The translations under genes were made by a program, and so were the position numbers. The notes below the pieces were generated by a model. The model ran no database searches. It saw nothing but the letters and a program-made list of their open reading frames with translations, and was not told the origin of the DNA. 64,000 nt of DNA from a virus: positions 1 to 64,000 of IMG/VR virus record IMGVR_UViG_3300014502_000004; one strand, given 5' to 3'. Shown here piece by piece: positions 3,500-64,000 of the stretch. Positions within the stretch are counted from its first letter, which is position 1. Each line of letters opens with the position of its first letter.

Positions 3500-3505
3500 A
3501 CTTTC

Positions 3506-7810: not shown

Positions 7811-8334
7811 TGATGATACTCTCGTGTGAACGCATGGTTTACGGCTTTGCCAGAAAGCTGGCACGGGAGTGTCCAGAACTCGATTTCAATGACATCAAGG
7901 GTGATCTGTGGATAGTTGCACTGGACTCACTCAAGAGGTGGAACGGTAAAGACAAGAGCAAGTTCTCCACATTCCTCTTCAATCGACTGGTCTGGAAGCG
8001 ATTGAACATTCTAAAGACAGTGATCAATCACGGAAGGCTTGATCGTTGGTTTGAGGGATTGCTAGATTTTGAGGTTCCTCCCATTGAGAGAAGCTTTGAT
8101 ACCCTTTGTCGCCAGGTAGCCAGCAAACTAGGGGAAGATGAGCGTAGACTGTTTAGTCTCATGGTTGATCCTTCCCCTGGTTTGCTGGAAGCGGCGTCCA
8201 AAAGTAAGACACGCTTCTCCCAGGACAAGATTTGCTACCACCACTACCGGCTGTTGTTGGGTTGGAAGAGAGGAAAGGTGTGGTACGCAATAAAGAAGAT
8301 CAAGCTGGCCGTTGCAGAGGTAGTCAATGGCTAA
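7807..8334 (+). CDS. Phage sigma-70-like factor
   Basis: Region-2-like DFNDIKGDLWIVALDSLKRWNGKDKSKFSTFLF; region-4-like LGEDERRLF...LGWKRGKVWYAIKKIK. Confidence 0.7.
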   Translation: MMMILSCERMVYGFARKLARECPELDFNDIKGDLWIVALDSLKRWNGKDKSKFSTFLFNRLVWKRLNILKTVINHGRLDRWFEGLLDFEVPPIERSFDTLCRQVASKLGEDERRLFSLMVDPSPGLLEAASKSKTRFSQDKICYHHYRLLLGWKRGKVWYAIKKIKLAVAEVVNG

Positions 8335-16411: not shown

Positions 16412-16437
16412 AACCGATAGCTCACTTGTACTATAGG
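16407..16437 (+). promoter_or_regulatory. Phage-specific promoter motif, copy 1
   Basis: TGTAAAA-N12-TTGTACTATAGG, same at 37110 and 44897. Confidence 0.75.
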
Positions 16438-27824: not shown

Positions 27825-28381
27825 GTGAGATAGCTGAAAAGGTTTACGTTGCTGTAGATGTGAACAATCTATGGCACAGTTGTCGAGACATCTTTGGTTC
27901 GACAACAAGGGTGAACTATGACCAGCTCTTGAAGAAGATCAGAACTGGTGGTTACAGGGGTGTGCCCAGAGAAGTCACTGCAGTCGCCTACACCATCACA
28001 TCCCCTCATCGTCGCACCTCTGAGACTGGCCGCACACGAGAAGAGCCCTCACGCAACTCACGCTTTCTAGAATCTCTCCAGAAGTTTGGCTACCAGGTGA
28101 AGACTAGGCAGATGAGATACGAGAAGGGTGTGGACAAACCATTCCACACTGACTGGGATGTGGGCATCTCAGTTGATGCAATCACTGATCAAGATCAGTT
28201 TGATACTTTCATCATGGTTAGTGGTGATGGTGATTTCATTCCATTGATTAAGAGGTTGCAGGACAAAGATAAGAGAGTAGAAATCTATACTTTTGAGAGA
28301 ACAGCTTCACAGAACTTATACTCTGTGGCTGACAACATCGTGTTTCTTACTGTAGAAGATACCTATCAAGAAAAGATATGA
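27821..28381 (+). CDS. NYN (LabA/DUF88, PIN-fold) domain protein
   Basis: VDVNNL, DWDVGISVD, VSGDGDFIPL, S..L...AD. Confidence 0.9.
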   Translation: MSEIAEKVYVAVDVNNLWHSCRDIFGSTTRVNYDQLLKKIRTGGYRGVPREVTAVAYTITSPHRRTSETGRTREEPSRNSRFLESLQKFGYQVKTRQMRYEKGVDKPFHTDWDVGISVDAITDQDQFDTFIMVSGDGDFIPLIKRLQDKDKRVEIYTFERTASQNLYSVADNIVFLTVEDTYQEKI

Positions 28382-37109: not shown

Positions 37110-37140
37110 TGTAAAACGATGGGTTGGGTTGTACTATAGG
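37110..37140 (+). promoter_or_regulatory. Phage-specific promoter motif, copy 2
   Basis: TGTAAAA-N12-TTGTACTATAGG. Confidence 0.75.
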
Positions 37141-44896: not shown

Positions 44897-44927
44897 TGTA
44901 AAATGCCTCTCTCGTTTGTACTATAGG
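44897..44927 (+). promoter_or_regulatory. Phage-specific promoter motif, copy 3
   Basis: TGTAAAA-N12-TTGTACTATAGG immediately upstream of the histone gene. Confidence 0.75.
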
Positions 44928-49864: not shown

Positions 49865-50490
49865 AATCAAATCCGAGATTGTATCTATTGGTGAAGGCAG
49901 GAGCAGATCAGGAATCTGGTGGCCGCACTACGATGCCTTCTGGGGGTCAGGCCAAGCGTGAAGATGAGCACAGCTACTCTCGGCAGCCTGAAGGGGAGAG
50001 TGGTGATCCTACCGCAGACACTGCCGAGGAACGATGGCATGGTTCTGGAACCGAGACTGATGAGGATGACCCTCACAAAGATGACAATGAGCAGACTGGT
50101 GAGGAGCGGGATGTTCAGAAGGTGTGGTCCAATCCTCAGGTTCCTTTCCAGCAGAAGGATGTAGCTGAGGCTCCTGCGGAGGCACCCGGGGATGCACCTG
50201 GGGCAGCCCCCGGAGTCATTCCTGGGCAGCAGCAGGCCCCTCCAGGAGAGCAAGCTTCTGTCGTGAAGAGCCTGATGGCTCAAGCCATGAAGGCATTTGC
50301 TGGGGCTCCTCGTTTTGCTCAGGGTCCATTGGTTCCTCCTCGTGAGAAAGAGTGGCTCAAGACTCAGGGGTATTCCCCCGATGAGATCGATTCAGGTCAG
50401 GTTCAAATCACTTCTCGAATGAGGGGTGAGTTCAATCGTTGGCTTCAAGGAACCATCAGGAAGTCTCTTGGTGGTTTGATGAGGGGATAA
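49861..50490 (+). CDS. Head-module protein
   Basis: LLVKA, VVKS, IRKS motifs; directly before portal. Confidence 0.65.
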   Translation: MKSNPRLYLLVKAGADQESGGRTTMPSGGQAKREDEHSYSRQPEGESGDPTADTAEERWHGSGTETDEDDPHKDDNEQTGEERDVQKVWSNPQVPFQQKDVAEAPAEAPGDAPGAAPGVIPGQQQAPPGEQASVVKSLMAQAMKAFAGAPRFAQGPLVPPREKEWLKTQGYSPDEIDSGQVQITSRMRGEFNRWLQGTIRKSLGGLMRG

Positions 50491-50492
50491 CG

Positions 50493-52409
50493 ATGATTGC
50501 TCCCCCTGTGGACTACACTGAGATTCAGAAGTCGATCTCAGCTCAAGAGATGCAAGAAGCCTATCAGGAAGTGGGACGGTTAAGAAATGTCACTTCCCAC
50601 ATTCCTGTTGCTGCTAGAAAAGAGCCAGGGGCTCTTCAGAAGGCATATCGTGGTCTTTCAGATATGGGTCCTAATCGTGGTCCCAAGTCTGCCTTCTTCG
50701 ATCCTCTCTCACTTCAGTATGCGATGGGGTACAAGGACCGTCGCTATTCTCTGACCTATGATGTTCTCAAGCGATGTGCAACTCAGCTCTCAATTGTTGC
50801 TGCTATTGTCAATACTCGAATTGCTCAGATTGCATCGTTTGCTGCTCCGTATCGAACCACGAAGTCTCTGGGGTACATGGTCAAGCACAAAGACCCAGAG
50901 CACATGACAACTCGTGCTGAGCGTGAGTTCATCAAACAGCTTGAAGCATTCGTTGCTAACTGTGGTGAGCCTGGAAAGAAGAATATCTACAGTAGAACTT
51001 CAAGGGATGATTTTGAGTCATTCTTGAAGAAGGTTGTTAGAGACACATTGGTCTATGATCAGCTTTGTTTCGAGATCGTTCCTAGAAACAATAGAATCCC
51101 ATTTGAGTTTCTAGCAATTGATGCAGCCACGATCAGAATTGCATCTACAGATCGCGATGCTGGTATTGGTTTTAGCTACCATGCTCGAAATCCTGTGGCC
51201 CCTCTTGGTGGTCGTTTCGCTGCCCTCTATGAGAACAAGCAGTATGGGGCATTGACAGGAAGCGGCTACGGTGGATTCTCTGATCCTGTCACCGATCAAG
51301 ATGTGCAGTTTGTTCAGATCATCAATGGTCAGATCGAGAACGTCTACAGTGAGAGCGAGCTGGCTTTTGGTGTTCGGAATCCTCGTACTGACATCTACAT
51401 TCAGCAGTACGGTTATGGTGAGATTGAACAGCTCATCACCATCGTGACTTCTCTCCTCTTCTCTGAGGAATACAACCGTCGATATTTCACCCAAGGTTCT
51501 CACCCCAAGGGTTTGCTTAACTTCAAGGGTGATAACTGGACACCAGATCAGCTTGAGGCATTCCGTCGGCAGTGGGTTGCTACTGTGGCGGGTGTTGAGA
51601 ATGCATGGAAGACTCCAATCACTCAGTCTGAAGGAATTGAGTGGATCAACCTTCAGATGACCAACAAGGATATGGAGTTCTCCACCTGGATTGAGTATCT
51701 AATCAAGATCATTTGTGGTGTGTACCTGATTGACCCAGCAGAAATCAACTTCGACCTTCATGGTGGTGTGCAGCAGACGCCACTTTTTGAATCAAGTCAG
51801 GAGTGGAAGCTCAAGGCATCTCGTGATCGTGGTCTGAAGCCGCTCCTTAGGTTCATTGCCAAGCTTATCAACAAGCATGTCATTGACAAGATCGATGATC
51901 ATTTCGTGTTCGAGTTCGTTGGGCTTGATGAGCTGACGGAACAAGAAAAGCACGAGATGATCAAGGAGCAGATCGCAAGCTACATGACTCTTAATGAAGC
52001 TCGTCGGTCTCTCGATCTTCCTGACATTCCGCTGGGTGATGTTCCACAGAATCCTACCTATGTTCAACTGTTGCAGATCTACAACCAGAACATTCAGCAG
52101 CAGCAAGCTCAGCAGCAGCAACAGCAGCAGATGGAACAGCAGCAAGCGATGGCAGCTCAGCAGGGTCAACTTCCTCCTGGGGCCGAGCAGCAGGGTCAGC
52201 TTCCTCCTGGTGCTGAGTCCCCCCAGGGTGGACAGGTTGTGAGGGCTCCCGGTCAGCCCGGTGAGGGAGGCATTCCTGCTGGTCAAGGTCCAGTTCCAGG
52301 CGAGAGGCCAGGAGCCACACCTAAGTACACAGCCAATTTCGGTAAGTCGATGAAAGAAATCGTTGTGACTTTCGACGATTGGATTGATCAAAAGAGGAGT
52401 GACAAATGA
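50493..52409 (+). CDS. Portal protein (SPO1/Twort-like) with Q/P/G-rich C-terminus
   Basis: RNPRTD..YG...E, YNRRYF.QG..PKGLL, NAWKTP, DMEF..W, IDPAEINF, SRDRGLKPLL, MTLNEAR. Confidence 0.92.
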   Translation: MIAPPVDYTEIQKSISAQEMQEAYQEVGRLRNVTSHIPVAARKEPGALQKAYRGLSDMGPNRGPKSAFFDPLSLQYAMGYKDRRYSLTYDVLKRCATQLSIVAAIVNTRIAQIASFAAPYRTTKSLGYMVKHKDPEHMTTRAEREFIKQLEAFVANCGEPGKKNIYSRTSRDDFESFLKKVVRDTLVYDQLCFEIVPRNNRIPFEFLAIDAATIRIASTDRDAGIGFSYHARNPVAPLGGRFAALYENKQYGALTGSGYGGFSDPVTDQDVQFVQIINGQIENVYSESELAFGVRNPRTDIYIQQYGYGEIEQLITIVTSLLFSEEYNRRYFTQGSHPKGLLNFKGDNWTPDQLEAFRRQWVATVAGVENAWKTPITQSEGIEWINLQMTNKDMEFSTWIEYLIKIICGVYLIDPAEINFDLHGGVQQTPLFESSQEWKLKASRDRGLKPLLRFIAKLINKHVIDKIDDHFVFEFVGLDELTEQEKHEMIKEQIASYMTLNEARRSLDLPDIPLGDVPQNPTYVQLLQIYNQNIQQQQAQQQQQQQMEQQQAMAAQQGQLPPGAEQQGQLPPGAESPQGGQVVRAPGQPGEGGIPAGQGPVPGERPGATPKYTANFGKSMKEIVVTFDDWIDQKRSDK

Positions 52410-53671
52410 GCAGACTCAATATGATCAAGTCGAAGAAGAAGCACACTCCTCTTAATCTAGACGAAAAGAAGAGTGCTCGTTTGGTTCCAGAAGCTGGTGC
52501 TCAGATCATGAAAGACTTTGAGCACATGGCTGGAGAGTACAAGAAGATCGATGCAGCAGGTCCGTCAGCCAAACCCCAGCATGTGATGGAAACAGCTCAG
52601 ATGCATGGTTGGTCTACCCCGGCCATGGGTCAGGTCGGCGAAGAGAAGAAGCAGGCTTTAGGTATTCGAACCGGATCAAAACAAACTACTCCCAGGATGG
52701 CTGGAGCTTCTGGTGCCCACACTGTGTCTCATGGTGGTGATGTGATCTCTTCTGCACCAGCAGAGACAAAGACCAAGCCTTATACAAAGCCGTTGAAGCC
52801 AGGATCAACTTTTACAATGCAGTCAGTAGCTAAGCCGGAGAGTGAGAAGAAGGTTGCCTCTATGAGCGGACCTCCTGAGGGTACGCTTCAGGCCGCCTCA
52901 GCAAAGGCTTTCAAGGCTCTGAAGAAGGCTGCCGAGGATCAGGAAAAGCATTATGGGATCCACTATGGGACGAAAGACCCCAAGGGCTCTTTGTCTAGAA
53001 TCAAGAAGTACAAGACCAAACGTGGGAAGATCAAGAATCCGCCCAAGAGTGCAGAGGGTAAGAATGACATGGCTTCTGAGATGATTGCTCACCACATGCA
53101 TCATCTTGGTCGTCATCCAGGTGGTCAGAAGCAAGCAATCGCTATTGGCTTGAATCAGGCCGGTGAGAGCAGAAATGACAAGTCCATGGTCCAGGGCAGT
53201 CCTCAGTATGCCCCCCTTCGACCTAGCCACAAAATGGGTATAGGAGAAAAGTCGATGGAGTCCACCAAGAAGTCGTTTGATGAGTTGATGGATCTGAGCA
53301 AGGCTGTCACGGCGAGGTCGCTGCCTCGTATCCCCCGTGCCCTGCAGCCGCAGAAGGACATCTTCCGTTCTGCCATGGACATCCCCACTAACAAGGATTC
53401 TAGGCTCGCCAAGGACATCCCTTCGATGCACGCTGGGTATCTGAAACCTGATGTGCTAGCTCAGGTTCGTCGGGATGAGGAAGAGCGGACTCACCGTGAG
53501 GTGAACAAGAGCGGTGAACTGCAGGATTGTGATGTCTGTGGTCGTGTGTTCTCCAAGAGCTTCGATGCTTGTCCAACCTGTCAGATTAGCAAGGCGGCCA
53601 TGTGCAAGGCATGTGGGCATCAGATGGTGAAGGGACGAGACGGCGAGCTTCATTGCTCCATCTGCGGGTGA
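52406..53671 (+). CDS. Head-module protein with C-terminal Zn ribbons
   Basis: QKQAIAIGL; CDVC/CPTC/CKAC/CSIC; many K[AS] motifs. Confidence 0.65.
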   Translation: MSRLNMIKSKKKHTPLNLDEKKSARLVPEAGAQIMKDFEHMAGEYKKIDAAGPSAKPQHVMETAQMHGWSTPAMGQVGEEKKQALGIRTGSKQTTPRMAGASGAHTVSHGGDVISSAPAETKTKPYTKPLKPGSTFTMQSVAKPESEKKVASMSGPPEGTLQAASAKAFKALKKAAEDQEKHYGIHYGTKDPKGSLSRIKKYKTKRGKIKNPPKSAEGKNDMASEMIAHHMHHLGRHPGGQKQAIAIGLNQAGESRNDKSMVQGSPQYAPLRPSHKMGIGEKSMESTKKSFDELMDLSKAVTARSLPRIPRALQPQKDIFRSAMDIPTNKDSRLAKDIPSMHAGYLKPDVLAQVRRDEEERTHREVNKSGELQDCDVCGRVFSKSFDACPTCQISKAAMCKACGHQMVKGRDGELHCSICG

Positions 53672-53675
53672 GGTC

Positions 53676-54959
53676 ATGCTCCTGACTGCGACTCAGCTTT
53701 TCGATCTGGCGAGTGACTTGCTCAAGTCTAAGCAGCATCCGACTCAGACGGGGCCACGGGGAGGTAAGTTCTACCTCACGCAGTCAGGGGAGAAGATCTA
53801 TGTTGAGGAAGGTGTGGTTGGAAAGAAGATCAAGGGTGAGACAGAGCCTCCTCAGCTTCTTCTTCACACTACGAGTGCTCCTCATCTTGTTGAGTCCAAG
53901 AAGGATGTTGAGGTTAAGATCGTACCTGGGAAGAAGGAGCTTCCAGCTAGATTCCAATCCAAGATGAAGGTTGGCCATCCTAAGCGAAGCTACATTCGAG
54001 CCCAGGAAAGCAGCAACTGGCCAGCCTATTTTTGTCGAAACTGTAATTCAGCAATCGTCCCTAATCATGATCACCCTGTGACAGTTCAGAGGGTAATTAG
54101 GAATCCACGAACGAATCAGGTTGAAGGTCGTGTTGGGGAGACTGTAGGTAATACAACTGATGTGACACAGATCAATCCCAAAACTGGAGAGAAGAAGTAC
54201 ATCGATCCTCCAGATCCTGCTGCTGTGGCTCAGAAACTCTGCCCCACTTGTTTCAAGCAGCATGCGGTCCAGAGTCGTGAGGTCACAGGTCGTGTTCCAG
54301 CTCTTAAGCTGACTGTAGCGAGCCGGACCAAGATGAAGGAAGTCAAGGCTGCTGCCAAGCTTCTTGAGGGAGCACTGAAGAAGCTTCCGATCAAACGGTC
54401 TAAGGAGGAGCAGAGGTCAATTAGGGAGCATGAGGCTACCCAGGCTACTCAGGCCAGAGCAGAAGCCAAAAGGCTCAAAGCTGCTGGTCTTCCAACGACT
54501 GTGCGTCGTGAGCGAGAAGCAGCTGCAATGAATAGGGAAGAGACAGAGGCTCAGGCAAAGATCAGAACTAGGTTCAAGAATCATCTCATCAGACAGGGGA
54601 CGGATGAGGCTACGGCTAGTGAGTCAGCCAACAAGATGACCCCTGTTGAGATTCGACAGTTCCGTGATCAGTCTGCTCATGAAGAGTCAGTTAGAGGTGA
54701 GGAGACACGGCAGAGGTTAGGGAAGGAGCTGGAAGGAAAGAAGCTAGTCCGTGTTGTAGGAATGAGCCAGCTCATGGATTTGATGGAACGTCGCAAGCAT
54801 GGTGTTCCTGGAAGTGAAGAGGAGCATGGTGCTACATTCGAGGGGTTGAACCCAACCAAGGCTCGTCAGGATGAAGCGACACGGACAGAGAAGTTACGAG
54901 ATCGTCAAGAGAAGGAATCCAAGATCAAGAAGAGTGTTGGTCTTTGGATGTCCGTATAG
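53676..54959 (+). CDS. Head-module protein (GPRGG motif, Zn finger)
   Basis: DLLKS..TGPRGGKFY; CRNC...CPTC. Confidence 0.65.
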   Translation: MLLTATQLFDLASDLLKSKQHPTQTGPRGGKFYLTQSGEKIYVEEGVVGKKIKGETEPPQLLLHTTSAPHLVESKKDVEVKIVPGKKELPARFQSKMKVGHPKRSYIRAQESSNWPAYFCRNCNSAIVPNHDHPVTVQRVIRNPRTNQVEGRVGETVGNTTDVTQINPKTGEKKYIDPPDPAAVAQKLCPTCFKQHAVQSREVTGRVPALKLTVASRTKMKEVKAAAKLLEGALKKLPIKRSKEEQRSIREHEATQATQARAEAKRLKAAGLPTTVRREREAAAMNREETEAQAKIRTRFKNHLIRQGTDEATASESANKMTPVEIRQFRDQSAHEESVRGEETRQRLGKELEGKKLVRVVGMSQLMDLMERRKHGVPGSEEEHGATFEGLNPTKARQDEATRTEKLRDRQEKESKIKKSVGLWMSV

Positions 54960-54969
54960 GAGAAGATAG

Positions 54970-55437
54970 ATGCCTCACAACCCGTATGCAGGCCACATTC
55001 CCCTCAATCTCCGCAACAGCAAGACTGATGAGGAGCTGAGCAAGTCCACGAGCTATCGAGAGGGGATCACGCACCCAACTGAGTACCGCACACCCCAGCA
55101 GGACCCTTCTCTGCTGAGGAACGAAGGCTGCACTCCTCTTCGTCGCTACCCTGATGGCAGGCTCGACACCGAGTTTGTGGCCAGCCAGGTTATCGACATG
55201 ATCCACAAGGCTGAGAGTGGTGGCAACCTGACTAGCTTTGAGCAGTCCATTCTCACTCTGATCCTCCCTCAGAAGTTCCAGCTGGTGAATCCCAAGATTG
55301 CTGGAACCATGGCCAGGATGACAGAGGAGGAGCGGGGTCTGGTTTCTCTTCGTGTGCTTCGACATATGAATGAGGAGCTGAACTGGAACACCGGCAGGGG
55401 CGGTTCGGTGCCGTTCCACCATGTCACAAAGAGTTAG
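54970..55437 (+). CDS. Head-module protein
   Basis: AGGAG RBS. Confidence 0.65.
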   Translation: MPHNPYAGHIPLNLRNSKTDEELSKSTSYREGITHPTEYRTPQQDPSLLRNEGCTPLRRYPDGRLDTEFVASQVIDMIHKAESGGNLTSFEQSILTLILPQKFQLVNPKIAGTMARMTEEERGLVSLRVLRHMNEELNWNTGRGGSVPFHHVTKS

Positions 55438-55657
55438 GCTTCAGGTTCCTGAGGACTTGAGCACCGATGATGTGATCAAGTCTTTGGAGGCAACCATCGA
55501 GACGCTGAGGAAGGGTGGTCCAGATCCCGACCTCAGTGTTTTGTTATCTGGAGAGAACCCTGCAGCGTCTCATCTGGTGAAGTTTGTAGATGATTCATTT
55601 GATATCATGATGAATAGTCTGGCCAAGGAAATATCCAAGGTACTTAGCTCAAAATGA
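55421..55657 (+). CDS. Small head-module protein
   Basis: DVIKS motif; tiling. Confidence 0.55.
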   Translation: MSQRVRLQVPEDLSTDDVIKSLEATIETLRKGGPDPDLSVLLSGENPAASHLVKFVDDSFDIMMNSLAKEISKVLSSK

Positions 55658-55830
55658 AGTCTACTATTTCTCAGAGACTTACTGTAAAGAAATCACTGTC
55701 TACAGATGGTGATCGTATTTTGAAACTTCTGGTTAATGAGTATCATATGCAGCACATGGATGCAGTTAAGTTGATGATGGACGGTGGACCGATGTTAGCT
55801 GTGGCGTTGATTAAACTTACACAGGGGTAG
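55654..55830 (+). CDS. 58-aa protein (not in ORF track)
   Basis: MKSTISQRLTVKKSL...; ATGA overlap, fills gap exactly. Confidence 0.5.
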   Translation: MKSTISQRLTVKKSLSTDGDRILKLLVNEYHMQHMDAVKLMMDGGPMLAVALIKLTQG

Positions 55831-55833
55831 AGC

Positions 55834-57174
55834 ATGCTCATCTATCTTGATGAGGGTCTGTTTAAGATTTCAGACAAATTGTGGAAAGCTCTACCTAAGG
55901 GTAAAGAGGCATTTGGTAGTCGTCTGTCCAGATACGATGAGCCGGCTACACCAAAGGTGGCGAAACCTGCTGTTGCTGCAGTTCCAAAACCTACTACTCC
56001 TGCTCCCGTGCGTGGGCCAGACGTTTCGTCTCCAGGTCATCAGCTGGCCACACACGAAGCAGCTGCTGGTCATGCCCAACATGGGTACATGATGCACATG
56101 CTGAATAATGAACCAGAACATGCCAGAAAAATGTTGGGCATGTATCAGACTCACACTGCTCGTGCTGGTATTCTGAAGCAGCAGGGAGCTGTGACTACTC
56201 CACAACATCACGAAGATTTAGCTGTTCATTATCACTTGAATCGAGATCAGTATTCTGGGAGTAAGACTCCTGTTTATTCTAGAATCAAAGCTCATCTTCA
56301 GCACGCTGGTCATCCTCCTGGGACTGACATCAATGATGTAGCGGAAGCTCATGCTACCAAGACCAAAGAATCTGCAGAAGGGGGGTATGGTCCGTATAGT
56401 TCCAGCAACAATAAGATGGGGACAGCGGCTCCTTATGCAGATAAGCCGATTGGTGCTGAGGAAGGGACTTCAGTTAGGCGTCGGGTAGCGAAGTCTTTGA
56501 TTGATTGGGATTGTGATCTCATCAAAGCTAAGGTTGGTAGACATATTGATCTTTCCAAGGATGCTTTGCAGAGGAAGCTCAACGGTGGTCACTATTCTTT
56601 GGTGTCAGCTGGCAGGAACATAGAAGACCCAGAAGAGAAGGATCTGCCAGAGAATCATCCCAAGTTCTTAGCCAGGCATGAGAAGCTTAGAAGTGATCTA
56701 ATCAACCATGGATTAGATCACACTGAGGTTGAAGGTCATTGGGGTGGTAAAGAGAAGTCATTTCTAGTTCATCATGTACCAAAGGCTAAGGTTGCCACTC
56801 CTAGGAATGTGATGACAAAGACATTCATGGTTCATCACAATGATCCTAGTGAGCATAGCACTGTCAGAGATCTGGCTAAGAAGTACAATCAGAATAGTGT
56901 CATCCACTCAAAAGGTGGATATCATGAGTGCCATTATGTAACTGGTGCAGATGCAGGAACCCATAACAAAGGCGCAGGTCATACTCTGAAGCCTGAAGCT
57001 ACAGACTTGTACACTGAAGTTCCTCATCCCAACAAGACATCAACCAAGTTTGAGCTGAAGTTGGATTGGAATAACAAGCATCCTGCAAAGACTGCTGTAC
57101 TGAAATCACTGACAAGACTGTACATCAACAAGACGAGTCTGAAGAAGGCGTTTCCTCTCTTCATTCGTCTGTAG
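55834..57174 (+). CDS. Head-module protein containing a T3 gp0.3-like SAM lyase domain
   Basis: YSLVSAGR...RH...GHW..KEKS..V...VRDLA...QNSVI aligns with T3 SAMase motifs as recalled. Confidence 0.65.
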   Translation: MLIYLDEGLFKISDKLWKALPKGKEAFGSRLSRYDEPATPKVAKPAVAAVPKPTTPAPVRGPDVSSPGHQLATHEAAAGHAQHGYMMHMLNNEPEHARKMLGMYQTHTARAGILKQQGAVTTPQHHEDLAVHYHLNRDQYSGSKTPVYSRIKAHLQHAGHPPGTDINDVAEAHATKTKESAEGGYGPYSSSNNKMGTAAPYADKPIGAEEGTSVRRRVAKSLIDWDCDLIKAKVGRHIDLSKDALQRKLNGGHYSLVSAGRNIEDPEEKDLPENHPKFLARHEKLRSDLINHGLDHTEVEGHWGGKEKSFLVHHVPKAKVATPRNVMTKTFMVHHNDPSEHSTVRDLAKKYNQNSVIHSKGGYHECHYVTGADAGTHNKGAGHTLKPEATDLYTEVPHPNKTSTKFELKLDWNNKHPAKTAVLKSLTRLYINKTSLKKAFPLFIRL

Positions 57175-57183
57175 GAGAAGACC

Positions 57184-57801
57184 ATGCGTAGCGACATGAT
57201 TGGCCCCCGAAGGCTTCAGCCTGCCAAGACGGAAGACACATGCAATCCTATTTTCGTTCTTGTGAACGAAGATCCTCATCGTGTGCTCAAGTCTCAGGTG
57301 ATGCCTGGTGTCACTGAGGGGCAGATGAATGGGGCGTTGCCTCGGATTCCAAGTACCCGTCCTGGGCTGTATCTGGAGGAGAAGGTTGAGAAGGCTCAGG
57401 TAGTGGAGAAGGACTTTGACAGTGGCGAATCTCAGGAGGTCGAAGCTGCGTTGCGGAGCAAGCCTGTTGGTATTCCTCATCTTGGTATTGATCGTCCTGG
57501 GACTCGTGCGGAGGCTGAAAAGAAGAAGAAGCGTATGCTAGTTGGTCCAGTTATAAAGAAGGCCAAGATACATTCAGCTCATTCATCATTGACGGAAGCT
57601 GAGTTGGAAAAGCATCCAATTGGTACGGTGTTAAGGATTCATCGTCCTGGTAGGCGACCTCAGACACTAACTAGGGAAGACTATCAGCATCATATGACTG
57701 GTAAGACTCATTGGCGACATAACTCTGGTGATAGAATGTCACACATGGGTGTTGAAAGGCAACTGGGTGAAATGGGATATAAGGTGATTGGTAAGGACTA
57801 A
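57184..57801 (+). CDS. Head-module protein
   Basis: AGGAG RBS; VLKS, VEKA, IKKA. Confidence 0.6.
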   Translation: MRSDMIGPRRLQPAKTEDTCNPIFVLVNEDPHRVLKSQVMPGVTEGQMNGALPRIPSTRPGLYLEEKVEKAQVVEKDFDSGESQEVEAALRSKPVGIPHLGIDRPGTRAEAEKKKKRMLVGPVIKKAKIHSAHSSLTEAELEKHPIGTVLRIHRPGRRPQTLTREDYQHHMTGKTHWRHNSGDRMSHMGVERQLGEMGYKVIGKD

Positions 57802-57806
57802 GGTGA

Positions 57807-59210
57807 ATGGTTCTTACCAGAGCCCAGATCGAGAAGCTTGCTGAGATCATCCGTCAACATGCTACCTGGTTTGCTTGGCGGGTTTTCGGAGAGCAAGAGA
57901 TCTCAGACAAGGATTTGCAGCAGCTCAAGTCGAGCGGCAAGCTGCCAATGGATGTCCATGCCCAGTCGATCAAGTATGCCTATGTCCTGGGTAAGCTAGA
58001 GTCTGTCCTCAAGGAAGGTGAGTACAAGAATCTGAGCTGGACCCAGCTGCAGGAGGCTGCAGAGGGCAGGTACACGACGGTCGACAAGCTGGCCATTGAT
58101 GCTGCTGAGCTGTCTGCTCACACGAGGTTCAGGAACCTCATTGATGATATGAGGAATGGTCTGTACCAGAAACTGTCCCAGGCCACCAACCAGACCATTT
58201 CAGAAGCCAGCATCAAAGAGACCATCGCTGATAAGATCAGAACTGGTGTAGATCTGAGCCAAGCCTACACCAAGGTTGCTAATGAGCTGGTAGATGCTCT
58301 GCAGGAAACCAAGAGGAATTGGTCACGAGTAGCAGCCACAGAGATGCACTCAGCCCGTCAACGTGGGATTGCTGCTGCCATCATTCAGAAGGAAGACATC
58401 TACAAGTATTCTGACGGTATTGATAGCAATGTAGCTGTGGTCCATGACTACGATATGTGTGATGACTGCAGGCGTTTGTACTATGATCCTAAGACAGGTA
58501 ATCCAAAGATCTTCAAGCTGAAGGAGCTGCTTGATAACGAGGGTTCAAATTATCGTAGACCATGGCGACAGAATGCTAAACCTGTACTCCCACCAGCTCA
58601 CCCCCACTGTTATGGAAGACTTCATTATGTTCCTGCTGGATGGGGATGGGATGACCAGCATGAGTTCACTCTTCTAGATCCAGCTGAAGCCTATCCTGAA
58701 GTGGTGAAGGGCAAGATTCTAGACGTTCCCAGCTACAGGCAGAAAGAGAAGTACACCTGTGGCCCATCTGCATTTCTTGCTGTGCTTGAGTATTACAAGT
58801 TCAAGGATGTTCCTGATGAGAAGAAGCTAGCTGAAGCCCTTGGATCAACTGAAGAGGGTGGAACAAGACCAGAGGATATCGAGAAGCTGGCGAACAAGTG
58901 TGGTCTCAAGGCTTCGATTCAAGAACCAATGGAGATTGATGATCTTGAGAAGCTGACTGATGATGGTGTGCCGGTCATTGTTGCTATGCAGGCATGGCGG
59001 GACACGAAGGCTACACCTTGGGCGAGTGATTGGGATGATGGTCACTACGAAGTGGTGATCGGTGTGGACAAAGATGAGATCCATTTCGAGGACCCATCTG
59101 TGTCGAAGAAGAGAGCGTTCATCCACAGAGATGAGTTTTTGAAACGTTGGCATGATGTTGATCGAGATGGAAAGAAACGAATCCATCTTGGGATAGTGAT
59201 ACGACCATGA
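57807..59210 (+). CDS. MuF/SPP1 gp7-like head morphogenesis protein fused to C39-like cysteine peptidase
   Basis: RNWSRVAATE, C..C, PPAHPHC; then RQ...TCGP, GHYEVVIG, FEDP. Confidence 0.82.
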   Translation: MVLTRAQIEKLAEIIRQHATWFAWRVFGEQEISDKDLQQLKSSGKLPMDVHAQSIKYAYVLGKLESVLKEGEYKNLSWTQLQEAAEGRYTTVDKLAIDAAELSAHTRFRNLIDDMRNGLYQKLSQATNQTISEASIKETIADKIRTGVDLSQAYTKVANELVDALQETKRNWSRVAATEMHSARQRGIAAAIIQKEDIYKYSDGIDSNVAVVHDYDMCDDCRRLYYDPKTGNPKIFKLKELLDNEGSNYRRPWRQNAKPVLPPAHPHCYGRLHYVPAGWGWDDQHEFTLLDPAEAYPEVVKGKILDVPSYRQKEKYTCGPSAFLAVLEYYKFKDVPDEKKLAEALGSTEEGGTRPEDIEKLANKCGLKASIQEPMEIDDLEKLTDDGVPVIVAMQAWRDTKATPWASDWDDGHYEVVIGVDKDEIHFEDPSVSKKRAFIHRDEFLKRWHDVDRDGKKRIHLGIVIRP

Positions 59211-60313
59211 ATCCATTCGATGAGCTTGAGATGATCTCCAAGGGTGAGTTGATTCCTGGTGGCAAGGCTTCAGGAAAGCCAAAGCCCCAGGATGATCATG
59301 AGTCCAAGAAGACTGGTCGTGAGATTGAAATGGAGCATGTGGAAGGCGGTCCTTTGCCCAAGAAGGTGAAGGAAGCTGTAGCTGATGAGATCCACGATGA
59401 TCACGTCGAAGAACATCCTGGTTACTATGATGACAAGATTGGTCTTCCAGCCATGGAGCGCCAATTGGACAAGGTGGGGAAGTCTGATTCAGGCTCGTTC
59501 CGTGGTGGTGATCCTGAGCTGGCTCAGCAGAAGCAGCAGGAAGCCAAGGATGAGGCTGCAGATCAAGATATGGGTGGGGATGATGCTGGGGATGATGCTG
59601 GGGATGCAGCTGAGCCAGATGAGGATGCTGAGATCGCTCAGCAGGACAAAGATGATACGAAGTCTGACAAGATGGCGAGCCTGACGAAGGCTGGTGGATT
59701 CCCATCTATTCCAATGGGCAGTCAGGAAGTTTCGCCTGTCAACACGGATGAGGACTACTTTGATGACAGAGATCCCAAGCGGAACGTCAACAATTACTAT
59801 CTTCAGTTCCGTGGTCGTCAAGCCCCATTCAAAGAGCCTTGTCCGTTGGATCGCCGTGAACACCAACATGAGGTCTGGTCAGAGGCTCTGGGTTACCGAA
59901 TCCCCCTTGAGGGGAACCCCGCTATGTATCTCCGTAGGTTCAATTTAGCTGGGGACAAGGAAGGATATGAGCAGGCTTTGAAGGAGGTTTTTAAATCAGA
60001 CCAGGATGAACAAGAACCAGATCAGAATCCTGAGCAAGATTCTGAGCAGGGTGAGTCTAATGAAGAGGAGCCACCTGGCCCCAAGATGTTGCTTCAGCAT
60101 CTAAATGAATTTAGCAAAGATCAATTGATTCAGATTTCCAAGAAGATCTGGGGTGACGACTACAATTATCAGGATTGGATGGATGACGATTATATTAGAA
60201 ATGATATTGCTGGTTCACTGATGGATCTACTGGAAGGTGATGGAGATAATCCATTTGAGGATGGAATGGATCAGCAGCCTGAGGAATCGGAAAGTGCTTC
60301 CTCTGCTGATTGA
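59207..60313 (+). CDS. Acidic head-module protein with DUF5661-like N-terminus
   Basis: IPGGKA...GREIEMEH...EI.DDH..E.PGYYD..L..ME. Confidence 0.6.
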   Translation: MNPFDELEMISKGELIPGGKASGKPKPQDDHESKKTGREIEMEHVEGGPLPKKVKEAVADEIHDDHVEEHPGYYDDKIGLPAMERQLDKVGKSDSGSFRGGDPELAQQKQQEAKDEAADQDMGGDDAGDDAGDAAEPDEDAEIAQQDKDDTKSDKMASLTKAGGFPSIPMGSQEVSPVNTDEDYFDDRDPKRNVNNYYLQFRGRQAPFKEPCPLDRREHQHEVWSEALGYRIPLEGNPAMYLRRFNLAGDKEGYEQALKEVFKSDQDEQEPDQNPEQDSEQGESNEEEPPGPKMLLQHLNEFSKDQLIQISKKIWGDDYNYQDWMDDDYIRNDIAGSLMDLLEGDGDNPFEDGMDQQPEESESASSAD

Positions 60314-63300
60314 CATAACCAAGGCTCGCAAGGGTGAGCATGTTGGTGGCAAGTACATTCTTCGTTGGTGGAAGAGTGAACGCTGGAACTATAAGTATTC
60401 AGATCTACAGAATCCGAATCATGGTCCAGCCAGTACAGCTACTGAGAAGCACACCATTGATGTACATCCTCAATCACTGAGGTCCGAGCATTCCCCTGAG
60501 CAGGCGTTTCACTATGCCAGGCATCAAGCTCTGAGAGGAACAAAAGAGCACACTGCAGTTATTCTGTCCAAGAAGGGGGCTCCAAAGTACAAGGTCCTGG
60601 TTCGCCCATCCTCTGTCAGACCGATCATCATTCTGCCTCCAAACTCAAACCAAGCTCAGGATGCTATCACTACCCTTCCAAACTTTGCATCGTTGGATAA
60701 CTGGGCTCATCGGAGAAGGACAACTAGAACTGTCCGTGACGCTCAAGGGAAGCCTTGGTTTGAGTTGAGGGACCGTGGACCTACCAGGGACAATCCCAGT
60801 GGCAAGATGAGTGTCAGGTACTGCGCTAGCAGTCCTCACAATCCCTTCCCTGGTGAGCCTCCTCAGTGGGCTGCCAGCCCATTCACGAAGGAGACGGCCA
60901 AGGAGTGGATAAAGGAGCAGCGGAGGCAGCAGAGAGCCTCTGGGCAGCGTGTGAAGCCTGCCAAGAGGTTTCCTATCGATAGGGATAGGCCAGCCACTAC
61001 AGCTCTTGAGCAAGGTCGAATCACTTGGACCAGAGTTCGTAAGCCGTACTCCATTGTGTTCCATGAGAGGACTGGCAAGACCACACAGCGTCGTGGGACT
61101 AGACCCATAAGACATGCTCAGTTCAAATCTGATGAAGATCGAAAGAACTTCTATGCCAAGGTTGTGAAGGAGCATTTTGGTCAGATAGTGCTGTACGCAG
61201 AACGTCAATTGAAGATGTACAATATATTTGATGTAGAGCAAATGGCTAGACTTCTTGGCTACTACGGTGGTCCTGGTCGTTCTTCCAATATCCAGATTGA
61301 ACCAGAGTCACCTACCATGACTGCTGTTGAGAGAGCAGTCAATTCTTATGATCCTGAGAAGGGTTGGAAGTTCAATACCTATCTTGGTCATTGCCTGTGG
61401 TGGGAAAACTTCAAAGAGACAAAGAAGATACTTGGTGAATTAAAGGAACGGCAGAAGATGGTCACGACGTTGGACCACAGTGGTCACACCCATGATGTGA
61501 TCACGAATCTTCAACGCAAGGATATGCATCCTGACCATGAGGCAATTGTCAGTGTAGGGGCACACACAGGTGAGCCAGATGTGAACCTGCTGGCGAAGCA
61601 GGAGAAGCTGAAGGATTGGTCCACCAGGCAAGAGGACAAGATTGCTCGCTTCACAGCAGCAGCTGGTGATGACCACGAGAGGCAGGTAACATCCTTTCTT
61701 GCTGCCACTGATCTACATGAGATCAAATCTCCTGAGCAGGCTCAGGCATTCATTGCTCACTGGCAGTCTGATGGTGGGGACGAGTTCGTGGAGCCCTATG
61801 AGGCTGAGGAAGTATCTAGACCCAAGGTCAAGATTCCTGCCAGCGAGAAGAAGTCCTGGGTGACCATGGTGACAGAGCATCCTCTGCTTTCTTCGGCTGA
61901 GAAGGCGGCTCTACTGACCTTTGCTCCTAAAGGTGATCTTCAGAACATTCGACCGTTCACAGAGGTGTCGCTGGAGTTGGCGAAGAAGCATTCGAAAGAG
62001 TTTTCTCGTCCACCGTCTGAGCATCAATTGGTTGACATCTTTCTGAGTGCCCACCAGAAGCTGGCCGGTCTACCGGAGTTTGAGGCAATGCAAGCAAAGC
62101 TCTCTCCAGTGATGAAGGCGATCAATCTCATTCGAAAGCTTCAGCTCGACAAGATCTCCCAGGCTTCAGATATTCTTAGGAAGGCCAAGAAGGGGGAGAA
62201 GGTTCAAGGCTACAAGTATTGGAAGCGGGAGGGGGTTCCTGGTCACTACAAGTATTACTATCATGATGCAAAGGGAAACATCATTGAAGGGACTAATGCT
62301 CCGGAGGATCATAAGCATCATCAGCCGTCATTAGGTTCTCCTCAGGTGGCCAAGAACGAGCCAACTCAGAAGGAAAACCCTGAGTATTTTGATGCCAAGG
62401 GTCGGAAGATGAATCGGGCAGTTCCAGATCATGCTGAGTGGAATCCTGAGTATGACAAGGATACTCACAGCAAGAGATGGGCAGCTCGTTGGCCTAAGGA
62501 AGATGGGTCTGACTACGAGTACGGTTATCCTGATTCTGATGTTCAGGAGAACAAGGAACTCTCAATCAATACCAGCAACAAGCATCTGGATGAGCAGCTG
62601 CCAAAGGTTCGCAAGGCTTACAAGTCACTGATGGGTTCTGATGCTCTTTCAGATCGTGCTCTTGGTTTGATGGTTGCTTTGCTTGACCAGGCTTTCATGA
62701 GAGTAGGTAAAAAGGCTCATGAGCAAGCAACAGGTCATGTGGCTTTGGTTTCTCTCAAGAAGTCCAATGTCAGTGTGAAGGGTAATGTTGTTTCGTTCTC
62801 TTATATTGGTAAGCGTGGAATGGAACAGAATCAGAATGTGGTTCTTGATTCTAAAGCCATGGGGATTGTCAAAGATCTCCTGACTGCACCCGGAAAGAAG
62901 GACAAGGATTACTTCTTCTCTGTGCCAGTAAAGCGTGGTGGTAGGACCAAGTACCAGGAGATCGGCTACAACAAGCTCGTGAGAAACCTGCAGAGCCTTG
63001 GTGTTCAGGCAAAGCAGTTTCGTTCTTATCATGGCACCAGGCTCTACTCAGAGTATTTCGAGGAACTGGCTGAGAAGATCAAGGGTAAGCCAACAGGACA
63101 GATGCTGGACAAGATCTCTGAAGCCGCAGCTATGAAGGTAGCCGCAGCTCTGGGTCACTTCAAGAAGGAAGGCGAAGATCAGAAGACTCACACAGCTAAT
63201 GCCTTCAGTAGCTACATCGATCCTGTTGTGGTGAAGACTCTCTATCTCAATTCGCTGCATCCTGATTTCAACAAGTCGATTGAGGAAGTTGAGAAATCTC

Positions 63301-63734
63301 ATCCTGTCGAAGAGAAGGTTTCATATGATGGGGTGAAGATCGATATAGAGAACAAGAAGGGGAGCACCAGGAACTGGTACGATCCGAATGAGGACAAAGA
63401 GGGCAAGACCAGGATGAACTACGACTATGGGTTCATTCCTCACACGGAGGGTGTGGATGGGGATGGGGTTGATGTGTATATTGGTCCAAGCAAAGATTCG
63501 GCTCGTGTGTTTGTGATCCGCCAGATGAAGGGGCCTGACTTCAAGAAGTATGATGAAGACAAGGTGATGATGGGGTTCAGCTCACCTGAGGAAGCCAAAG
63601 CAGCCTACATGAAGCAGTATGATGACCCCAAGTTCTTTGGTGACATGAAAGAGATGACCATTCCGGAGTTGAAAGAGAAGATCAAGGATAAGAAGTACGA
63701 AGGCAAGATGCTCAAGTGCGTTAGTCTGGGGTGA
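60294..63734 (+). CDS. Polyvalent protein: sigma-70-like domain + DNA topoisomerase IB + inorganic-pyrophosphatase-like (InPase) domain
   Basis: sigma2 RAVNSYDPEKGWKFNTY; TopIB MRVG, GKRG, KQFR, LGH, SYIDP; InPase IEN.KGS.R, YGFI..T.G.DGD.VDV, DE.KVM.GF; likely GTG start 60294. Confidence 0.85.
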   Translation: MLPLLIDITKARKGEHVGGKYILRWWKSERWNYKYSDLQNPNHGPASTATEKHTIDVHPQSLRSEHSPEQAFHYARHQALRGTKEHTAVILSKKGAPKYKVLVRPSSVRPIIILPPNSNQAQDAITTLPNFASLDNWAHRRRTTRTVRDAQGKPWFELRDRGPTRDNPSGKMSVRYCASSPHNPFPGEPPQWAASPFTKETAKEWIKEQRRQQRASGQRVKPAKRFPIDRDRPATTALEQGRITWTRVRKPYSIVFHERTGKTTQRRGTRPIRHAQFKSDEDRKNFYAKVVKEHFGQIVLYAERQLKMYNIFDVEQMARLLGYYGGPGRSSNIQIEPESPTMTAVERAVNSYDPEKGWKFNTYLGHCLWWENFKETKKILGELKERQKMVTTLDHSGHTHDVITNLQRKDMHPDHEAIVSVGAHTGEPDVNLLAKQEKLKDWSTRQEDKIARFTAAAGDDHERQVTSFLAATDLHEIKSPEQAQAFIAHWQSDGGDEFVEPYEAEEVSRPKVKIPASEKKSWVTMVTEHPLLSSAEKAALLTFAPKGDLQNIRPFTEVSLELAKKHSKEFSRPPSEHQLVDIFLSAHQKLAGLPEFEAMQAKLSPVMKAINLIRKLQLDKISQASDILRKAKKGEKVQGYKYWKREGVPGHYKYYYHDAKGNIIEGTNAPEDHKHHQPSLGSPQVAKNEPTQKENPEYFDAKGRKMNRAVPDHAEWNPEYDKDTHSKRWAARWPKEDGSDYEYGYPDSDVQENKELSINTSNKHLDEQLPKVRKAYKSLMGSDALSDRALGLMVALLDQAFMRVGKKAHEQATGHVALVSLKKSNVSVKGNVVSFSYIGKRGMEQNQNVVLDSKAMGIVKDLLTAPGKKDKDYFFSVPVKRGGRTKYQEIGYNKLVRNLQSLGVQAKQFRSYHGTRLYSEYFEELAEKIKGKPTGQMLDKISEAAAMKVAAALGHFKKEGEDQKTHTANAFSSYIDPVVVKTLYLNSLHPDFNKSIEEVEKSHPVEEKVSYDGVKIDIENKKGSTRNWYDPNEDKEGKTRMNYDYGFIPHTEGVDGDGVDVYIGPSKDSARVFVIRQMKGPDFKKYDEDKVMMGFSSPEEAKAAYMKQYDDPKFFGDMKEMTIPELKEKIKDKKYEGKMLKCVSLG

Positions 63735-63737
63735 CCT

Positions 63738-64000
63738 ATGGACCTCTTCATTGATCTTATGAAGGCAGCAAGAGCCAGGGCAACTGGGGCAACTCAGCAT
63801 ACTTCTGGTGGTGATTTTGTCTGGAACGATTCTGTTGGGGCTTGGACCAGAAAAACACCACAGGGTGGTACACGCCCTCTTGAGAAGGTTAGTGATGCTA
63901 AAAAGCCAGTATCGTCACCAGAACCTTCTGAGAAGCCGCAGGGTGGTCATCAGCTAGAGCCATGTCAATTTGGTGGAGGCATGGAATGTATCAAACATGG
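63738..64000 (+). CDS. Head-module protein, truncated by window end
   Basis: MDLFIDLMKA leader resembling that of the preceding gene. Confidence 0.6.
   Translation, partial: MDLFIDLMKAARARATGATQHTSGGDFVWNDSVGAWTRKTPQGGTRPLEKVSDAKKPVSSPEPSEKPQGGHQLEPCQFGGGMECIKH

Follow-up and report, generated by a model that had tools for sequence, protein, structure and literature searches.

What might a protein that joins a sigma factor-like region to a topoisomerase and a pyrophosphatase do among the head genes of a phage? This question is raised by an open reading frame (ORF) at positions 60294-63734 (+ strand) of the DNA analyzed here, a stretch of 64,000 nucleotides (nt) that represents positions 1 to 64,000 of the IMG/VR virus record IMGVR_UViG_3300014502_000004 and is referred to below as the window. 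The viral contig that contains the window is 77.5 kb long, with an estimated completeness of 53%. A preliminary description, made from the letters of the DNA alone, had interpreted the ORF as a polyprotein of the head module with sigma factor, type IB topoisomerase (TopIB) and pyrophosphatase (InPase) parts. In our analysis, the domain calls, the head-module position and the K[AS] sites at the domain junctions stood up well, but the notion of a working sigma factor did not fare equally well (matches below Pfam thresholds, beta-prime-contacting residues not conserved in sequence, region 4 recognizable by fold alone). We favor the view that the product of the ORF is a polyprotein carried as capsid cargo by a large myophage whose head is of the SPO1 type; this cargo would be processed by the prohead protease and delivered together with the DNA. 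For this whole chain of inference, we estimate a probability of roughly 55%.

Architecture of the reading frame and its enzyme domains

The open frame extends from 60237 to 63734 (+ strand). We assigned the start to the GTG codon at 60294, because a GAGGAA Shine-Dalgarno box is located about 7 nt upstream, because the database copy of the protein (P0002) has 1146 residues, and because the aligned homologs open with the same residues (M-L-x-L-W-I-D-L-x-K-A). With the stop codon at 63732-63734, the predicted product has 1146 amino acids and consists, in this order, of an N-terminal domain, a sigma-70 domain-2-like module, helical domains, TopIB and InPase. Conservation was judged in an alignment of ten full-length homologs of like architecture with 43-67% identity. 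The family is rare: a set of 5.8 billion proteins contained 11 clusters of it, and IMG/VR contained 9 full-length loci. Matches in Pfam, profile and fold searches agreed with the sigma-2-like, TopIB and InPase assignments made previously for this ORF.

The TopIB part, comprising an N-terminal subdomain and the catalytic core, extends over amino acids 700-990 (62391..63263, + strand). The Pfam family Topoisom_I (PF01028) matched amino acids 762-962 with 81 bits against a cut-off of 23.7 (E 1e-22), and the PDB entries 6z01 and 2f4q were found with E about 1e-8. The match to 6z01 starts at amino acid 724, and therefore the N-terminal TopIB subdomain is present too. The preliminary description had credited the domain with the catalytic residues R, K, R, H and Y, and this proved correct: R803 (62700-62702), K840 (62811-62813), R910 (63021-63023), H955 (63156-63158) and Y974 (63213-63215, all + strand) are invariant in the ten homologs. 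The first four residues align to the M-R-V-G, L-G-K, F-R-T-Y and L-N-H motifs of 6z01, and Y974 is found within an S-Y-I-D-P motif, which we take to be reminiscent of the eukaryotic N-Y-L-D-P motif. Judged by its sequence, the domain carries a complete R-K-R-H-Y pentad, and relaxation activity is predicted. The bacterial, archaeal and poxvirus TopIB enzymes (PDB 2f4q, 6z01, 1a41) share the catalytic core and the pentad with the ORF, in which the fourth pentad position is His and not Asn as in bacterial TopIB, and the N-terminal subdomain of the ORF aligns to 6z01. A difference is that the domain is here part of a phage head-module protein. A tblastn search of 50,697 phage records with amino acids 690-1000 returned one weak match, in Phage NCTB (24% identity), the surroundings of which were not informative. 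This single match indicates that TopIB is very rare in deposited phages, as anticipated by the earlier remark that it is uncommon in tailed phages.

The InPase domain (63312..63686, + strand), a type I pyrophosphatase as found in phage polyvalent proteins, had likewise been predicted and was recovered as Pfam family PF18823 over amino acids 1007-1131 (118.7 bits against a cut-off of 26.8, E 2e-34). Its metal-binding acidic residues E1019, D1055, D1060, D1087 and D1089 are kept and are invariant in the alignment. The domain is 33-43% identical to InPase domains in phage virion proteins, including the Pa193 portal, the sequence of which contains the closest solved relative as its C-terminal domain (PDB 9b41). 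PHROGs matches were confined to the InPase part of the ORF, and the matched families are named minor head protein or virion structural protein. According to Iyer, Burroughs, Anand, de Souza and Aravind (2017, PMC5512222), InPase is exclusive to phage-type polyvalent proteins, and its removal of pyrophosphate may assist early transcription or replication. The Pa193 portal fusion, the PHROG names and the polyvalent-protein survey identify InPase, at the level of sequence comparison, as a virion-linked domain.

Head block and candidate cut sites

The ORF lies between the genes for the portal (50439-52409) and the prohead protease (genome positions 71591-72526), which confirms its placement in the head module. 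The gene for the major capsid protein (MCP) is found at genome positions 73655-75109, and its product is about 42% identical to the MCPs of SPO1, CP-51 and other Herelleviridae. In CP-51, the genes for portal, protease, scaffold and MCP directly neighbour each other, whereas here about 19 kb of ORFs, ORF 60294-63734 among them, separate the portal from the protease; Herelleviridae such as CP-51 lack an insert of this kind. The probable capsid-cargo block spans positions 52406-64000 of the window and continues in the genome to 70969. Its other products include proteins with SAM lyase (55834-57174) and C39 peptidase (57807-59210) domains, as well as a 1799-residue SNF2 protein (genome 65570-70969) that resembles DarB in size and location. 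Synteny of the portal, the cargo block, the protease and the MCP, in this order, was seen in 8 related metagenomic loci.

The pattern hydrophobic-x-K-[AS] occurs seven times in the ORF, at K10, K608, K630, K775, K824, K994 and K1001. The first occurrence ends a ten-residue N-terminal leader (I-T-K|A; 60294..60323, + strand), a candidate capsid-targeting propeptide that the prohead protease would remove. At the junction between the sigma-like part and TopIB, the site V-M-K608|A609 (62115..62120, + strand) is invariant in 10 of 10 homologs, and a further site, L-R-K630|A631, which is found in 6 of the 10 homologs, is followed by the second copy of a hairpin motif described below (site and motif 62181..62264, + strand). 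TopIB and InPase are separated by V-E-K1001|S1002 (63294..63299, + strand), where K1001 is invariant and followed by A or S in 10 of 10 homologs. No homolog that extends over K10, K608 or K1001 lacks the respective site, and the K10-A11 pair is nearly invariant. In contrast, K775 and K824, which are inside the TopIB fold, and K994 are not kept across homologs. All five K[AS] sites named in the preliminary description (60321, 62115, 62181, 63273, 63294) are thus real as motifs, but conservation is complete for three of them (K10, K608, K1001), partial for K630, and lacking for K994|S.

The pattern was not a peculiarity of this ORF. It was present in the first 40 residues of 13 of the 17 head-block ORFs, the protease and MCP included, compared with 13 of 90 ORFs elsewhere (Fisher p 8e-7), and its density was 7.3 per 1000 residues in the head block and 2.3 elsewhere. 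The MCP site A-E-L-Q-K|A is homologous in position to the site D-A-L-N-K|A in the MCP of Bacillus phage CP-51, and the CP-51 scaffold contains 11 hydrophobic-x-K-[AS] sites. The enrichment in the head block, the conservation at junctions only and the CP-51 MCP site lend support to the interpretation of the junction sites as processing-type sites; conservation restricted to junctions is the pattern expected from selection for processing there. Judging from these sequences, the prohead protease probably cuts after the K of hydrophobic-x-K|[A/S]. A search of the literature for measured prohead-protease specificity in SPO1-type phages yielded nothing usable.

Alternatively, the protein might not be packaged, but be a late cytoplasmic multi-enzyme protein that is located in the head operon by chance, with K[AS] motifs that merely reflect composition. 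The shortness of the motif would be in line with such a scenario. We nevertheless consider it quite improbable, in view of the strong motif enrichment and the conservation at junctions only, the presence of N-terminal leaders in the protease, MCP and other head-block ORFs, and the consistent association of InPase with virions.

Some further features of the region deserve mention. The ORF immediately upstream (59207-60313, + strand, 368 residues) overlaps ORF 60294-63734 by 20 nt, and its counterpart in the distantly related loci L005-L009 and L013 forms an in-frame N-terminal extension of the sigma-TopIB-InPase protein. The relatives contain repeated F-R-G-G-D-P-E-E motifs, with a DUF5661 match in L008. 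In the homologs P0005 and P0011, a SAM lyase domain is fused C-terminally. The modules are thus not tied to fixed ORF boundaries. In the gap between the protease and MCP genes, a + strand frame (genome about 72550-73600; L001) encodes an acidic/basic repeat protein that is dense in hydrophobic-x-K-[AS] sites and, by its sequence, is likely the scaffold; the longest-ORF call in this gap, a minus-strand ORF at 72448-73608, was rejected as spurious. The only terminase-like ORF (28378-31278, + strand, 966 residues, GpA_ATPase) is located about 19 kb upstream of the portal gene, from which it is split by many small ORFs and by a region where the strand skew inverts near 34-36 kb.

The sigma-like half of the protein

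The module at amino acids 275-385 (61116..61448, + strand) resembled sigma-70 domain 2 in both profile and fold comparisons. It contains a region 2.2-2.3-like motif (61320-61424, + strand) in amino acids 343-377, the best conserved stretch in the N-terminal half of the protein, with the sequence R-A-V-N-S-Y-D-P-E-K-G-W-K-F-N-T-Y-L. The region-2-like segment reported previously at 61320-61410 (amino acids 343-372) coincides with this motif, and the assignment was therefore upheld.

Searches with single sequences did not reach sigma factors. The Pfam scan of the whole protein at E<=1 contained no sigma family, a phmmer search of the PDB with the sigma-like region found no sigma factor, and the same search among 1.84 billion representatives gave 5 matches, all of them family members or low-complexity sequences. 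With a profile of the family, the PDB search returned TopIB, InPase and then SigA, RpoS and SigE chains at E 0.01-1, all at the same positions. A profile of the module only gave 11 matches, 10 of them sigma factors (WhiG 0.049, RpoS 0.14) that aligned without gaps on region 2.2-2.3. In hhalign comparisons with an alignment of E. coli RpoS, FliA, RpoH, RpoD (C-terminal part) and RpoE, the probability of a match was 75% (P 2.6e-5), and 86% (P 4.8e-6) for a 16-sequence sub-alignment of amino acids 270-394, which matched RpoS 72-165 over 90 columns.

Fold comparisons pointed to the same family. The AlphaFold2 model of amino acids 270-640 was all-helical, with a mean predicted local distance difference test (pLDDT) score of 76.9. 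Foldseek comparison of the model with 350,542 PDB chains gave weak E-values (0.04-0.7), yet nearly all of the top 50 matches were sigma factors. VIA-align, run against 48,161 representatives, placed SigB, sigma-28, the SigE N-terminal domain and a sigma-70 fragment on ranks 1-4 (Z 8.2-7.7). On a second look, all of the top 50 matches were sigma factors, among them P. aeruginosa sigma-28 domain 2 (Z 8.8, root mean square deviation (rmsd) 2.2 A, 79 residues, 22% identity); the SigE N-terminal domain superposed with Z 8.0 and an rmsd of 2.5 A over 74/74 residues. Structure and profile thus both agreed with the expectation that this part of the protein should model as sigma domain 2. By fold and profile, the closest members of the sigma-70 family, with which the region 2.2-2.3 motif is shared, are those of group 3 (sigma-28/FliA, WhiG, SigB) and RpoS. 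No single line is decisive, because the Z scores are in a range that is ambiguous for helical proteins. However, sequence profiles and fold lists converge on one family, and we therefore regard it as very probable that amino acids 275-385 are homologous to sigma domain 2, albeit highly diverged.

Two helical bundles follow. The middle bundle (amino acids 421-504, model residues 152-235; 61554..61805, + strand) is placed like sigma domain 3 and had generic helix-bundle matches only. The second bundle (amino acids 520-595; 61851..62078, + strand) resembles sigma domain 4 at the level of the fold only: model residues 251-325 superposed on SigF domain 4 in VIA-align (Z 6.1, rmsd 2.2 A, 57/57), and in the second look, model residues 5-334 were collinear with sigma-70 residues 367-611, from sigma-2 through sigma-4. 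When the sigma-4-like segment was compared by itself in hhalign, the only match was weak (P 0.012) and concerned sigma region 1.2, not region 4. The region-4-like segment proposed earlier (61885-62060, amino acids 531-589) is located inside a bundle that superposes on SigF domain 4, but has no significant sequence similarity to region 4. In comparison with the sigma-70 family, the sigma-2 module, the helical middle domain and the sigma-4-like bundle are collinear, and a sequence signal for region 4 is missing here. Further differences to this family are an insertion before region 2.2, and the embedding of the module in a 1146-residue head-module protein, behind a 270-residue N-terminal domain without known fold.

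Several observations weigh against the reading of the protein as a delivered, working sigma factor. In a six-frame search of the 77.5-kb genome, Pfam Sigma70_r2 (PF04542) matched the module (61314-61391) with 13.9 bits, below the cut-off of 24, and Sigma70_r4 did not match the ORF. The Z scores of 6-9 have to be seen against the guideline of the fold tool that values below about 8-13 are ambiguous for helical proteins. At the polar positions of region 2.2 through which sigma-70 contacts beta-prime, the module has other residues (E-S-P-T-M-T in the aligned stretch), and therefore canonical core binding cannot be assumed. The sigma-4-like bundle is poorly aligned or absent in the distant relatives L005-L009. 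Moreover, a packaged sigma factor is not obviously needed, since the phage has a free-standing sigma-like gene (7807-8334, + strand, 175 residues). The product of this gene matched Sigma70_r2 with 21.6 bits, slightly below the cut-off, and the E. coli sigma factors over regions 2.1-2.3 in hhalign (P 2.6e-4). It has one other cluster only among the 5.8 billion proteins, and its sequence makes it a likely middle or late sigma factor of the phage. It speaks for the reading that RNA polymerase genes were not found in the 77.5-kb contig or in a 115-kb relative, but both are incomplete; with a genome that is about 53% complete, a phage RNA polymerase or another partner could be encoded in the missing half. 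Finally, the protease specificity on which the proposed processing depends is itself a deduction.

With these points in mind, it may be asked whether the resemblance to sigma factors arose by chance, from a short look-alike motif within an otherwise generic helical domain. The failure of all single-sequence searches to find sigma factors, and the ambiguous Z scores, are what would be expected in this case. We consider it very unlikely, because independent lines meet on the same 100 residues and on one family (P 4.8e-6 in hhalign, 10 of 11 matches in the PDB profile search), because the relative L008, at about 20% identity, also matches Sigma70_r2 (E 0.0064, likewise below the cut-off), and because the fold lists drawn from 350,542 and 48,161 chains were both filled by sigma factors.

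A different explanation accepts the homology, but not the function. The sigma-derived module could be a delivered decoy that only sits on RNA polymerase or on a host regulator, and so serve as an injected inhibitor or shut-off factor without promoter recognition. The replaced contact residues and the weakness or absence of the sigma-4 part would be compatible with this, as would the availability of a separate small sigma-like gene for phage promoters and the counter-defence-type domains (SAM lyase, C39 peptidase, SNF2) in the neighbouring cargo. However, the best conserved part of the module is the aromatic-rich, region 2.3-like motif (F-N-T-Y-L ... W-W). In sigma factors, region 2.3 handles the melted -10 element, and a pure decoy would not need it. 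We therefore think that a decoy is rather unlikely.

The N-terminal domain (amino acids 11-270; 60324..61103, + strand) is basic and belongs to no recognisable fold or family. Its AlphaFold2 model (amino acids 1-275) was confident and of alpha/beta type (pLDDT 80.6, predicted template modelling score 0.63) and had no fold match in the PDB (Foldseek, VIA; best PDB Z 5.4), BFVD or the ESM Atlas. Directly after K10|A, the domain contains the first copy of a basic-aromatic hairpin motif, A-[RK]-K-G-E-x-V-G-G-K-Y-x2-R ... W-x-Y-x-Y (60324..60401, + strand), modelled as a beta hairpin with strands 21-27 and 30-36. The motif recurs after K630|A, where it heads the TopIB unit. A resembling sequence, G-G-K-F-Y-L-T-x-S-G-E-K-I-Y after L-L-K|S, was noted in a 427-residue head-block protein (ORF 53676-54959, + strand).

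The sigma-like part is not a constant companion of the two enzymes. A 126-kb IMG/VR contig of another lineage (L044, 9311-12304) encodes a 997-residue 2H phosphoesterase-TopIB-InPase protein, and P0012 likewise combines TopIB and InPase without a sigma-like part. The occurrence of the pair without the sigma-like part in the L044 lineage identifies TopIB-InPase as a mobile cargo module. It also fits with cargo that acts on the DNA of the phage itself, in or at the capsid, and has no role in transcription: TopIB would relieve the torsion of packaging or ejection, and the sigma-like and N-terminal domains would bind or condense DNA. The fusion of InPase to the Pa193 portal and the very basic nature of the N-terminal domain would agree with such DNA handling. 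Yet relatives with as little as about 20% identity still have the sigma-2 motif, and the conserved cut sites between the sigma-like unit and TopIB argue that the two have roles of their own. In our opinion, DNA handling alone is improbable.

Proposed mode of action and known systems

We arrive at packaging, cutting and injection from the gene context, the motifs, and the analogy with T4 internal proteins and P1 Dar. According to this model of a capsid cargo polyprotein, the short N-terminal leader would target the protein into the prohead, where the protease would cut at K10, K608 (and/or K630) and K1001. Three products would result, the N-terminal domain with the sigma-like part (about 598 residues), the hairpin with TopIB (about 371-393 residues), and InPase (145 residues), and these would exit the capsid together with the DNA. 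In the cell, the sigma-like piece would engage the host RNA polymerase core and lead it to the phage early promoters, or would at least take the core from the host sigma factor. TopIB would adjust the supercoiling of the entering genome, and InPase would remove pyrophosphate or a nucleotide signal. Going by the sequence, a sigma function with the host RNA polymerase is plausible. The full version of this idea, in which a packaged sigma factor that is ejected with the DNA redirects the host core polymerase to early promoters before any phage expression, while TopIB sets the template topology and the pyrophosphatase assists, is one that we put forward with considerable doubt.

As to the promoters, the pattern TTGAC-N17-TAGGNT was not enriched in the window (1 match, 3.5 expected). 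A bipartite box, TGTAAAA[CT]-N12-TTGTACTATAGG, is present in three copies on the + strand (16407-16437, 37110-37140, 44897-44927), at gene boundaries and shortly 5' of start codons, and is a candidate for a phage-specific promoter class. Separately, the element TTCTTGAC, with TTACAC, TAAGGT or TAGGTT behind it at a distance of 17-18 nt, was seen at positions 3503 and 46113 of the window and at genome position 71478 (+ strand). It looks like a sigma-70-like -35 box with an odd -10 element, and its third copy is located just upstream of the prohead protease gene.

Phage-type polyvalent proteins have been proposed to be injected in order to jump-start transcription or replication (Iyer et al., 2017, PMC5512222). 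What they have in common with ORF 60294-63734 is the combination of unrelated enzymatic and nucleic-acid-binding domains in one polypeptide, the neighbourhood of virion genes, and InPase; the ORF joins at least two domains of disparate biochemical activity in a single polypeptide that is encoded with virion genes. However, polyvalent proteins use an embedded zincin peptidase, whereas the ORF has apparent prohead-protease-type hydrophobic-x-K|[A/S] sites, and the MuF domain is missing from the ORF. The text of the polyvalent-protein survey never mentions sigma, and topoisomerase appears in its reference list only (PMC5512222). In our literature searches, polyvalent proteins with sigma or TopIB parts were not encountered.

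T4 IPIII and P1 DarB have cleavable N-terminal capsid-targeting sequences and are delivered with the DNA, and the 250-kDa DarB is present in about 40 copies per head (PMC9024508). T4 IPI-III and the P1 Dar proteins share with the ORF the clustering with head genes and a short leader before a head-protease-type site. In the ORF, the leader ends at a site common to head proteins, at which cutting is presumed, and the large SNF2-type neighbour recalls DarB. The differences concern the residue at the P1 position of the sites, which is E in the T4 and P1 proteins and K in the ORF, and the cargo domains. In addition, several cargo units are concatenated here, and are apparently freed by internal cuts.

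Takeover of transcription at the time of entry is otherwise achieved by the injection of a whole RNA polymerase (N4, jumbo and crAss-like phages) or of modifiers of the host polymerase (T4 Alt). Vaccinia packages TopIB in its core, where it aids early transcription. The concept of bringing initiation factors and TopIB with the genome would be common to these systems and the ORF, but N4 and the jumbo phages bring the polymerase, while the ORF would supply the host enzyme with no more than a specificity factor. A review covers the virion RNA polymerases found in jumbo phages (PMC7598289). Full-text literature searches revealed neither a virion-packaged sigma factor nor TopIB in phage virions.

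In kind, ORF 60294-63734 belongs with the phage capsid cargo and polyvalent proteins; should its sigma function be real, the mechanism might be new. An injected sigma factor, if true, would be a third and cheaper route to the control of transcription at time zero. The sigma-like module and TopIB add two domain types to the phage cargo and polyvalent repertoire, and TopIB in the head of a tailed phage would parallel the packaged poxvirus enzyme. The recurrent grammar of leaders and cut sites across the 19-kb block suggests that SPO1-type capsids have a system for protein delivery that is modular and programmable. The loading of foreign proteins into phage heads has been accomplished with T4 and P1, and a delivery system of the kind suggested here could be used for the same purpose.

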